Source: an uncultured Christensenella sp.
GTDB lineage: Bacteria > Bacillota > Clostridia > Christensenellales > DTU072
Length of the DNA: 58,661 nucleotides
Direction of reading: 5' to 3'
Assembly: GCA_964368255.1 (NCBI GenBank)
Contig: CAYJBW010000002.1
Coordinates: 1-58,661 of the forward strand
The notes beneath the pieces are model-generated. The model was not told where the DNA came from. It did no database searches and saw nothing but the letters and a program-made list of their open reading frames with translations. Shown one piece after another: positions 56,005 through 57,054 of this stretch (position 1 is the first letter of the stretch; each line of letters opens with the position of its first letter). The position numbers were made by a program, and so were the translations under genes.

Positions 56005-57054
56005 ATGGGTGAAGCAATGAGCCATATTGATGAGATACTACAAAAGATTGAAAGTTACTGCGCAAGGTACGAAACTTTAGCGAAGCTAATTACCGCACCA
56101 GAAATTATTGCGCACAATAGTTATTGGCGAAAACTAGTCAAGGAGCAAAAAAGCCTAGCAGGTATTTATAGCAAAAGGCAAGAGCTAGCTAATAAGATAA
56201 AAGAAAAGCAACTTTGTATTGATATCCTAAAAGGTAGCGCTGAAAGTGAATATGAAGAACTAATAAAGAAAGAAATTGCCTTTATTGAGCAGGATATACA
56301 AAATATTTATCAAGATATTTTGACGCTCATTGCCAAAGAAAAAATTGTTTATAGCGATGGCGCGCTTATTAACTTCAAGGCGAAAGGCGAAGGCGCATAC
56401 AAGTTTTGCAAGATTATTTTTGAAATGTACAAAAGGTTTTGCACGGCAAAAGGTTTTGATTGCCAAGAAAGCATAGTAAATTATCTAGGCGGAATTAAGG
56501 AAGGTGAGCTAAGGATAGTGGGTCAGGATGCATACCACCTGCTTGGTACGGAAAGCGCAATGCATAGGAAAGTGGATACTTTAGCGAAAAAGCAAGCTAA
56601 TGTGCTTGTGGTAGTAGTTCCCTTGCAGATAAAAGAAAGCCCAGAAATCAGCGATAACGACCTAAAAATTGATGTTTTCCACGCCAGTGGAGCAGGCGGA
56701 CAAAATGTTAACAAGGTAGAAACTGCGGTAAGAATAAGGCACCTTCCCACCAATATTGTTGTGACATGTCAGGACGAACGCTCACAATTAAAAAATAAAG
56801 AAAGAGCCTTGCAGATGTTAAGAGACAAGGTACAAGAAAGTTTCCTTGTAGAAGAGGAGAAGCAAAAAGCTACCGCAAGGAAAAATGTAGAAAAAGGAAT
56901 AAAAGTAAACAATATAAGTAGAATATATGACTTTATAAGCAATACATTAACGGACAGCAGGGTATCTTACAGCAAAAAATTGGAAGATGCGCTAAACGGG
57001 AGCCTTGATGACTTAATAAACAATATCAAGATTTTTGCCAGTGAAAAGGATTAG
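56005..57054 (+). CDS. Class-I peptide chain release factor homolog (RF1-like length and GGQ domain) with a degenerate codon-recognition region
   Basis: 349 aa; the alternative start ATG 56017 has a better GGTGA SD. The segment [43 protein letters not shown] is RF-1 domain-like. [20 protein letters not shown] replaces the HRVQRVPxTE..GRIHTS block. [11 protein letters not shown] replaces EIRAGTGGDEA. Confidence 0.8.
   Translation: [349 protein letters not shown]

Follow-up and report, generated by a model that had tools for sequence, protein, structure and literature searches.

What does a release factor do when it has kept the part that frees the nascent peptide and lost the part that reads the stop codon? 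The question is raised by a gene near the end of a 58,661-nucleotide (nt) stretch of DNA from an uncultured Christensenella sp. (contig CAYJBW010000002.1, positions 1 to 58,661; hereafter the window). The gene encodes a protein derived from peptide chain release factor 1 (RF1, encoded by prfA), which we call the RF-like protein, and it lies between two giant genes and a helicase gene (Table 1). Our sequence comparisons support the conclusion that this gene is an RF1 paralog which arose within Clostridia, which is without RF1- or RF2-type stop reading and whose GGQ domain is under selection. As to its role, we give an even chance to the product being a codon-independent peptidyl-tRNA hydrolase that would work with the helicase, within a five-gene module, on stalled ribosomes.

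An earlier interpretation of this DNA, the sequence-only reading, had described the open reading frame (ORF) as having RF1 length and an RF1-like N-terminal domain. Both descriptions hold: the ORF encodes 349 amino acids (aa), with Pfam matches to PCRF (residues 20-188, E 1e-19) and RF-1 (residues 213-319, E 3e-32). Translation probably starts at the in-frame ATG at 56017, giving 345 aa, because the starts of homologues coincide there and GGTGAAG precedes it. The closest solved relatives in HMMER alignments are the RF1 proteins of T. maritima and S. mutans (E ~1e-45). Their block HRVQRVPVTESGGRIHTS aligned to 13 residues in the window protein, where TLAKKQAN takes the position of PxT. No PxT, SPF or GRIHTS was found in these alignments, in agreement with the motif loss that the sequence-only reading had described. 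The tip of helix alpha5 in RF1, EIRxGxGGxEA, touches stop-codon base U1; as the sequence-only reading had noted, this block is degenerate in the window protein (residues 123-133), which has KGEGA against GGEEA in RF1 and has lost GxxE. The switch-loop stretch, also reported as altered, was located at residues 299-312, and GDRSE is gone. The GGQ region, on the other hand, is nearly identical to that of RF1: the conserved hydrolase string quoted earlier is found at residues 228-268, with GGQ intact. Profile scores reach about half of the curated cutoffs for prfA and prfB. The prfA models ranked top in NCBIfam, with 206.3 bits for TIGR00019 (cutoff 423) and 203.4 bits for NF001859 (cutoff 400), followed by 181.6 bits for the prfB model TIGR00020 (cutoff 370), 72.5 bits for the PrfH model TIGR03072 (cutoff 166.65, the GGQ region alone being matched) and 56.8 bits for the ArfB model NF006718 (cutoff 100).

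These features are not peculiar to the window. A first homologue search gave proteins that have 33-58% identity to the query and show the same loss, followed by hundreds of 362-aa ordinary RF1 proteins at 36-38%, which retain PETESQGRIHTS when aligned with the family. The former, all from metagenome-assembled genomes (MAGs) of Clostridia or Bacillota, carry public names such as 'PCRF domain-containing protein' and 'peptide chain release factor-like protein'. Further members were gathered via the helicase partner, which gave a family set of 57 distinct helicase-linked sequences. GGQ is kept and the ORF is intact in 57/57, while PxT in register or G(R/K)xHTS is found in 0/57 and SPF in 0/57. As controls we used RF1 proteins obtained by scanning GTDB species genomes for the RF-like alignment and by looking up one canonical RF1, and all of these (88/88) have PxT...G(R/K)x(H/Q)TS. 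On these counts the motif loss in the family is no matter of chance. The GTDB scan itself recovered at least 79 canonical RF1 loci and at least one family member (L009). A homologue search with the family profile showed no further members among the matches listed, in which canonical RF1 predominated.

The motif-less proteins share a common origin. In a neighbour-joining tree of 149 sequences they all fall on one side of a single branch, with a bootstrap of 100/100 when all columns were used and 64/100 on the 105 GGQ-domain columns only; the latter value argues that the grouping is not made by the lost motif alone. The phylogeny that the sequence-only reading had proposed as a check thus returned a clade of their own. 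The canonical sequences nearest to it are gut Clostridial RF1s, and P0117 is without the decoding motif. We further compared mean pairwise identity by domain within the family and within canonical RF1 from many phyla. The values are 0.27 against 0.32 for domain 1, 0.23 against 0.59 for domain 2, 0.46 against 0.56 for the GGQ domain and 0.23 against 0.58 for domain 4. These differences indicate relaxed constraint on the decoding superdomain, but not on the catalytic domain. Members differ in the length and sequence of the hairpin tip that stands in place of PxT, which argues that no new reading motif has evolved there.

Reduction has gone further in some lineages, as the family includes a reductive series of proteins of ~300, 265 and down to ~210 aa. 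In the shortest forms, all that is left is the first domain-1 helices, a remnant of domain 2, the GGQ domain and helix alpha7. Minimised RF-like proteins beside the same helicase were seen in L155, L156, L157 and L152 (~208-225 aa) and in L143, L146 and L149 (265-277 aa); all of these have lost domain 4 and the decoding hairpin and retain the N-terminal helices, the GGQ domain and alpha7.

Most members nevertheless have the RF1 body, and the predicted structure of the window protein shows what became of its reading head. The AlphaFold2 (AF2) model, built on 45 sequences, has the four-domain architecture of class-I release factors (predicted local distance difference test score, pLDDT, 86.7; predicted template-modelling score, pTM, 0.73). 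The decoding beta-hairpin persists in it, as strands 185-190 and 198-206 joined by the short tip TLAKKQA. In Foldseek searches the top match was ribosome-bound E. coli RF1 (7m5d_A, E 6e-24, template-modelling score, TM-score, 0.63); chains comprising domains 2-4 of ribosome-bound RF1 matched at TM-scores of 0.72-0.77 (~3.6 A), and closed RF1 crystal forms matched more weakly (0.37-0.45). The open predicted shape is compatible with binding in the ribosomal A site, without being proof of it. Among the top matches was also a structure of mtRF1 (8oir). Vertebrate mtRF1 reads AGA/AGG and shows that RF1 paralogs can be retuned, and lysine is frequent at the tip of the former PxT hairpin in the family alignments. 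The RF-like protein might by analogy be an RF1 re-specified for a non-standard signal rather than a codon-blind factor. We regard this as very unlikely, since a new specificity needs a new conserved motif, and in this family the tips of the hairpin and of alpha5, like the switch loop, differ in sequence and length between members and are missing outright in some lineages.

The use of stop codons bears on whether the protein could be the only RF1 of its host. TAG ends 8 of the 26 long ORFs in the window, the RF-like gene included, as well as 126/642 ORFs over all cassette loci and 14/57 RF-like genes. A reassigned stop codon was considered and rejected, as all three stops are used in the window and the very long ORFs are intact under translation table 11. 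RF2 cannot read UAG. Because TAG stops are frequent, RF2 is unable to read them and the RF-like protein is without the UAG-reading elements of RF1, we infer that a canonical RF1 (prfA) is encoded elsewhere in the genome. In a related gut clade, canonical RF1 (P0029) lies in an rpmE / DUF1385-prmC / prfA neighbourhood; in L089-L098 the gene 5' of prfA encodes a 583-aa protein with matches to DUF1385 and a PrmC-type methyltransferase, and overlaps the prfA start by 17 nt. The RF-like gene was never found in such a prfA-prmC context, as the sequence-only reading had noted for the window; its neighbours are those of the helicase cassette. RF1 length and fold would be expected of an ordinary, if very divergent, RF1, yet all known UAA/UAG-reading elements are missing in a setting where TAG is common even for the RF-like gene itself, the scores reach half of the cutoff and the context is wrong for prfA. 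Neither does a decaying, functionless duplicate agree with 57 intact ORFs with GGQ, a conserved domain 3, an operon position kept across deep divergence and a ratio of nonsynonymous to synonymous polymorphism (pN/pS) of ~0.1-0.2 in one strain group. We therefore assign only the slightest probability to these two explanations taken together; a pseudogene was rejected on the same 57/57 count.

The genomic company of the RF-like gene is the second line of evidence. In all five family members on long contigs that were looked up, the RF-like gene is followed by the helicase gene in the same orientation, with short gaps or overlaps. Genes for a helicase of 802-820 aa and for proteins of 233-240, 601-661 and 73-78 aa follow in this order, and the genes of the cassette overlap or sit a few nt apart. 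In the window, the 7-nt gap to the helicase noted earlier was found again, with the RF-like stop at 57054 and the helicase ORF starting at 57062. The window ends inside the helicase gene and three further cassette genes lie beyond its end: contigs L106 and L107, 98% identical to the window, carry an 803-aa helicase, then the 237-aa gene and then a gene of at least 538 aa. A helicase-seeded metagenome scan yielded 66 further loci, and synteny was counted over the 53 distinct helicase loci for which 1.1 kb or more of upstream DNA was available. The RF-like gene is directly upstream of the helicase in 45 of these 53, and 0.3-4.4 kb upstream in another 4/53, three of which have inserted genes. In 38/44 loci, the gene for the two-transmembrane protein begins before the membrane-protein gene has ended and overlaps its stop codon. 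Such an operon is carried by many Clostridia of the gut that are uncultured.

Flanking genes differ between lineages. L001 and L008 combine a giant gene with YitT, L002 malic enzyme with smc-ftsY, and L006 cellulase with phosphodiesterase; in L005 the flanks are DUF4332 and a 232-aa ORF without annotation, after which comes a GDSL lipase. The cassette varies internally as well. In L006, L007, L009 and L099-L103, the fifth, ~75-aa two-transmembrane gene is replaced by a 228-aa, seven-transmembrane HlyIII-family gene, which overlaps the stop codon of the preceding 661-aa membrane-protein gene. Cassettes of helicase, coiled-coil and membrane protein without an RF-like gene were seen in L112, L113, L140 and L153. 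L140 has a tyrosine-recombinase-like ORF in the RF-like slot and L153 a PadR-like ORF, and L113 has opposite-strand genes upstream and a 953-aa version of the membrane protein.

The helicase of the cassette is of the superfamily 1A (SF1A)/UvrD-like type, and judged by its motifs it is catalytically intact. The part in the window is 98% identical to the full-length P0195, matches Pfam PF00580 and has Walker A GVAGSGKT, motif II DEVQD and motif III GDALQMINP. Over 41 helicase sequences, GSGKT, DEVQD, GDALQM, NYRN, KGLER and VGVSRA are invariant or nearly so. Its AF2 model (pLDDT 83.6) has UvrD/PcrA/Rep as best Foldseek matches (E ~1e-13), with HelD and Upf1-type enzymes matching at lower TM-scores. 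HelD matches via the SF1 core, with a TM-score of 0.35-0.36 for 6wvk_H, similar to UvrD/PcrA, and of 0.24-0.31 for mycobacterial HelD. Two parts are additional to this core: a beta-rich N-terminal domain (residues ~1-150), which is predicted not to be a coiled coil, and a C-terminal helical-repeat domain of ~160 aa (residues ~640-803) that resembles tetratricopeptide repeats (TPR). The N-terminal domain gave no structural match, and neither the Tudor domain of PcrA/UvrD nor the N-terminal arm of HelD was recognised. PADLOC reported weak partial matches of the helicase to GajB (best E 1.5e-15, ~80 residues) and to a helicase associated with defence-associated reverse transcriptases (DRT); no GajA-like neighbour occurs in the cassette loci, and no NCBIfam equivalog matches the helicase. 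The helicase family is sizeable: with E <= 1e-20, clustering at 90% identity gives 756 clusters, which all stem from Clostridia-type MAGs and carry generic names. Clustering at 50% identity gives ~16 full-length clusters that score above 780 bits and about ten remoter full-length ones.

The other three products are less readily placed. The 237-aa protein is helical/coiled-coil, and its matches in PDB profile searches are to generic coiled coils only. In the ~600-aa protein, a cytoplasmic domain of ~150 aa at the N terminus is followed by one transmembrane helix (~150-175) and by an extracellular part that is variable and contains GGIAG-type repeats; conservation is highest in the cytoplasmic domain, which found no match in the PDB profile search. 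The ~75-aa protein has two transmembrane segments. PADLOC, Pfam, NCBIfam and PHROGs offered nothing specific for any of the three. A relationship between the membrane protein and the giant proteins was considered and rejected, as the sequences are unrelated.

From this combination we propose the following mechanism. The RF-like protein would be the ribosome-acting subunit of the five-gene module, with most lineages keeping the RF shape for entry into the A site. The module would be recruited to translation complexes that are stalled or need clearance, where the helicase would pull on or strip nucleic acid, either mRNA or the DNA or RNA polymerase of a coupled complex. Steered by its partners rather than by a stop codon, the RF-like protein would then hydrolyse the peptidyl-tRNA, after which the ribosome could be recycled. 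The parts of this scheme that we infer are hydrolysis on ribosomes without regard to codons, a physical link with the helicase and the nature of the substrate. Precedents exist for both of its halves: HrpA, a helicase, rescues collided ribosomes in bacteria (PMC11419001), and in PrfH-RtcB an RF paralog is paired with a nucleic-acid enzyme (PMC6514570). Because arfB is mostly absent from Firmicutes and arfA/brfA are restricted to the B. subtilis group (PMC11633108), an RF-type rescue activity would fill a gap in Clostridia. A more specific form of the proposal, in which the RF-like protein and the helicase, anchored at the membrane through the other three products, make up a so far unrecognised, dedicated pathway for clearing stalled translation or coupled complexes in Clostridia, we put forward tentatively and hold to be doubtful.

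Several observations weigh against assigning the cassette to ribosome rescue. No RF-like gene is present upstream in 4/53 helicase loci, so that a helicase core is possible in its absence. Enzymes of the SF1A/UvrD type are DNA motors in the classical view, and a role on ribosomes or mRNA is therefore not the default for this helicase. The two membrane proteins and the coiled-coil protein are without recognisable domains in Pfam, PADLOC, PHROGs, NCBIfam and PDB profiles, and one would not readily expect a rescue pathway to include a membrane-anchored protein with a variable extracellular part. Matching of sample or contig identifiers found no assembly with both a canonical RF1 and a cassette. 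Conservation of the RF-like protein, moreover, is always below that of the helicase and the coiled-coil protein, and between the window and the near-identical L107:1443-2492 the RF-like gene shows 6 nonsynonymous to 1 synonymous (6N:1S) changes. As the protein evolves fast and shows this excess, a conflict system or relaxed constraint would fit as well as a housekeeping role.

Four of the changes relative to L107 lie in domain 1, at residues 74-93. In the helicase (window 57062-58660 against L107:2500-4098) the N-terminal domain, residues 1-150, has 7N:3S, and the last 466 codons of the giant gene have 2N:11S between the same strains (Fisher p ~0.003-0.004). The nonsynonymous excess could be due to diversifying selection or to relaxed constraint; it rests on few sites overall and is not repeated in the L006/L009/L099 strain group. 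Ratios of nonsynonymous to synonymous substitution (dN/dS) were estimated within strain groups only, with small counts, because synonymous divergence between lineages is saturated.

The main rival explanation is an anti-phage or conflict system, in which the membrane and transmembrane proteins would sense an event at the envelope, the helicase would act on the invading nucleic acid and the RF-like protein would release nascent chains prematurely and so shut translation down, as abortive infection. In a variant of this explanation the RF-like protein would, like PrfH, rescue ribosomes damaged by the ribotoxin of an attacker. A membrane sensor combined with a cytoplasmic helicase recurs in defence, as in Zorya and Kiwa, and with PrfH-RtcB there is already one conflict system that employs an RF paralog. 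Such a role would also suit the weak matches of the helicase to GajB and the DRT-associated helicase, the variable extracellular part and conserved cytoplasmic domain of the membrane protein, and the change of cassette context between lineages. It would likewise suit the fast evolution of the RF-like protein, with 6N:1S, and with 7N:3S in the helicase N-terminal domain, against 2N:11S in the giant gene, although this excess was not seen in the second strain group. However, no PADLOC model matches the cassette, and four of its five proteins have no meaningful PADLOC match. The flanks of the looked-up loci hold metabolic and housekeeping genes, with no integrases, restriction-modification systems or toxins. 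Neither the RF-like protein nor the helicase has close relatives in phage or plasmid collections, and the position of the cassette is stable across deep divergence within lineages, as the window, L001 and L008 share flanks at 42% RF-like identity. Taken together with its variants, we judge a defence function to be unlikely, while giving it serious weight.

The position of the RF-like gene behind two giant genes had suggested to the sequence-only reading a link with the translation of very long ORFs. Orthologues of the 5254-aa giant protein are encoded upstream of the cassette in L001 and L008 only, and are 60% identical to that of the window. Among these three loci the giant proteins are 60-80% identical and the RF-like proteins only 42-62%. 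Other lineages have no adjacent ORF of more than 1200 aa, and few have one inside 10 kb. The two giant proteins of the window had no Pfam match at E <= 1e-3 and share only a region of ~500 aa, at 23% identity. Because the giant gene is directly upstream in the window, L001 and L008 only, we regard the link as lineage-specific synteny; as a general rule it is not supported, since other lineages have malic enzyme, cellulase, DUF4332 and others upstream. Of the earlier proposal of a specialised factor, the paralogy, the loss of RF1/RF2-type decoding and the selection on GGQ (57/57 against 0/57 for the reading motifs) are retained. The conserved partner, probably in function too, is the helicase with the three further genes, and not the giant gene; the sequence-only reading had mentioned the helicase merely as a neighbour.

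Within the window lineage the spacer between giant gene and RF-like gene has no terminator-like and no good promoter-like site, which makes their co-transcription possible; the absence of a visible terminator had been noted before and none was found. This arrangement invites a further explanation, according to which the module clears coupled transcription-translation(-translocation) complexes: the motor would remove a stalled RNA polymerase, the RF-like protein would free the trailing ribosome and the membrane proteins would localise the process to sites where secreted or membrane proteins, giant ones included, are made co-transcriptionally. UvrD, PcrA and HelD are known to remove stalled RNA polymerase. 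The fold of the helicase is nearest to UvrD/PcrA/Rep, with HelD-RNA polymerase complexes matched too, cassette components are membrane-anchored, and the cassette of the window lineage lies directly 3' of two genes for giant secreted proteins, with which it is possibly co-transcribed. Blocked transcription-translation complexes are, in addition, a recognised rescue problem (PMC13584721). Against this, the giant-gene neighbourhood is confined to one lineage, no element for binding RNA polymerase (Tudor, HelD arm) was recognised in the helicase, whose beta-rich N-terminal domain is without a match, and the idea as a whole is inferential. We consider it improbable.

Table 1. Features of the window and of the RF-like gene, with positions in nt from the first letter of the window and residue numbers counted from the ATG at 56005.
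Feature	Position	Strand	Remarks
RNase Y	20785-22383	+	
TruA pseudouridine synthase	22590-23336	-	
ECF-transporter T component (CbiQ)	23333-24148	-	
Two further ORFs	24141-25819	-	
Giant gene 1	28715-40177	+	3820 aa, GTG start
Giant gene 2	40196-55960	+	5254 aa; lipoprotein-type signal peptide MFKSKSKLFLLLVLIIVMMTTVLAAC; lineage-specific neighbour of the cassette
Spacer	55961-56004	+	44 nt, from giant-gene stop to RF-like start
RF-like gene, RF1-derived	56005-57054	+	ATG to TAG, 349 aa; first gene of the conserved cassette
Domain-1 motif	56098-56139	+	aa 32-45; counterpart of RF1 DPEV..D; P32, E33, I34, A36 and L44 invariant in family alignments; retained even in ~210-aa forms
Degenerate alpha5 tip	56371-56403	+	aa 123-133; replaces RF1 EIRxGxGGxEA
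Former decoding hairpin	56563-56628	+	aa 187-208; tip TLAKKQA instead of PxT...GRIHTS
Catalytic GGQ domain core	56686-56808	+	aa 228-268; GGQ aa 231-233 = nt 56695-56703; highly conserved
Switch-loop region	56899-56940	+	aa 299-312; GDRSE lost; R306 and Y308 of the RTYNF motif kept
SF1A/UvrD-like helicase, 5' part	57062-58661	+	533/803 codons; cut by window end

The housekeeping genes in 20785-25819 indicate that the contig is chromosomal, and near-identical window sequence is present in metagenomes from manure, wastewater and pig gut. The window also encodes a probable surface protein of 926 aa (11958-14738, +), which combines four Listeria-Bacteroides repeats with a transglutaminase-like core, and a 409-aa protein (17785-19014, -) whose sole Pfam match is DUF1508 (E 2e-19, whole protein).

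Comparison with known factors sets the family apart from each of them. With RF1, of which the Clostridial representatives are nearest (36-38% identity), the RF-like protein shares ancestry, the four-domain fold, the PCRF and RF-1 domains, the GGQ loop and domain 3, and PE(V/I)I..D in domain 1. It differs in having no PxT, GRIHTS, GxxE alpha5 tip or GDRSE, in reaching half the equivalog cutoff, in domains 2 and 4 that evolve freely, in forms down to ~210 aa in some lineages, and in lying never beside prmC and nearly always beside a UvrD-like helicase. From RF2 (PrfB) it is separated by the missing SPF and a score below the TIGR00020 cutoff. PrfH is likewise an RF paralog with GGQ and an altered decoding domain, in an operon with a nucleic-acid-acting enzyme, and some PrfH operons have TPR accessory parts, as the cassette helicase has a TPR-like C-terminal domain. 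However, PrfH is ~200 aa long, has no domain 1 and has the RtcB ligase as partner, whereas the window protein has domain 1 and helicase and membrane partners, and branched separately from RF1; no RtcB was found in the cassette loci with called genes and Pfam matches. ArfB, ICT1 and mtRF-R (C12orf65) also have the GGQ domain and hydrolyse independently of codons, and the ~210-aa family forms converge on their minimal layout. ArfB is a ~140-aa, single-gene factor that senses the empty mRNA channel via its basic C-terminal tail; the RF-like protein is full-length and without such a tail.

Other likenesses lie in the logic of the proposed system. With ArfA, BrfA and ArfT, as would be the case here, a partner directs a class-I RF to a ribosome without a stop codon; theirs is the housekeeping RF with a tiny adaptor, whereas here a dedicated, decoding-dead RF would act with large partners. 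mtRF1 is an RF1 paralog with a remodelled decoding region, kept beside a canonical RF1-type factor, but it has conserved AGA/AGG-reading insertions and the RF-like family has no conserved replacement motif. HrpA, Slh1/RQT with Vms1, and eRF1-UPF1 exemplify an ATP-driven motor paired with a release-factor-type protein on problem ribosomes; their motors are DEAH or SF1B enzymes, against SF1A/UvrD-like here, so that this is an analogy only, without homology of the pairing. The cassette helicase, finally, has the core fold and all motifs in common with UvrD, PcrA, Rep, HelD and GajB, and differs in its ~150-aa beta-rich N-terminal domain, its ~160 aa of C-terminal repeats and the lack of a GajA partner.

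Class-I RF paralogs free of codon reading (PrfH, ArfB/ICT1, mtRF-R) have each exposed a distinct pathway of ribosome rescue or repair. The RF-like family would be a further, independent case of an RF without decoding, with a full RF body in most members, a natural reductive series and a linkage to a helicase and membrane proteins. In the survey by Burroughs and Aravind, the bacterial RF-type hydrolases are RF1, RF2, ArfB and PrfH (PMC6514570); a helicase-linked full-length RF1 derivative is not mentioned there, and no description of one was found in the full-text literature searched. As the sequences are already in databases under generic names, the novelty lies in recognising the family, its loss of decoding and its operon. 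If the cassette turned out to serve defence, a release factor blind to codons would represent a new kind of effector. If it serves as a dedicated clearing pathway, it would add a fourth RF-based route of rescue to those of ArfA/BrfA-RF2, ArfB and PrfH-RtcB, and would be the functional counterpart, in bacteria, of the helicases and release-factor-like proteins that are paired in eukaryotes. Should the RF-like protein prove to be a codon-independent hydrolase, the family would offer an experimentally tractable pair of helicase and hydrolase, it would reveal, as a natural experiment, what an RF still requires when it no longer decodes, and it would show how abundant anaerobes of guts and digesters free peptidyl-tRNA from stalled ribosomes.

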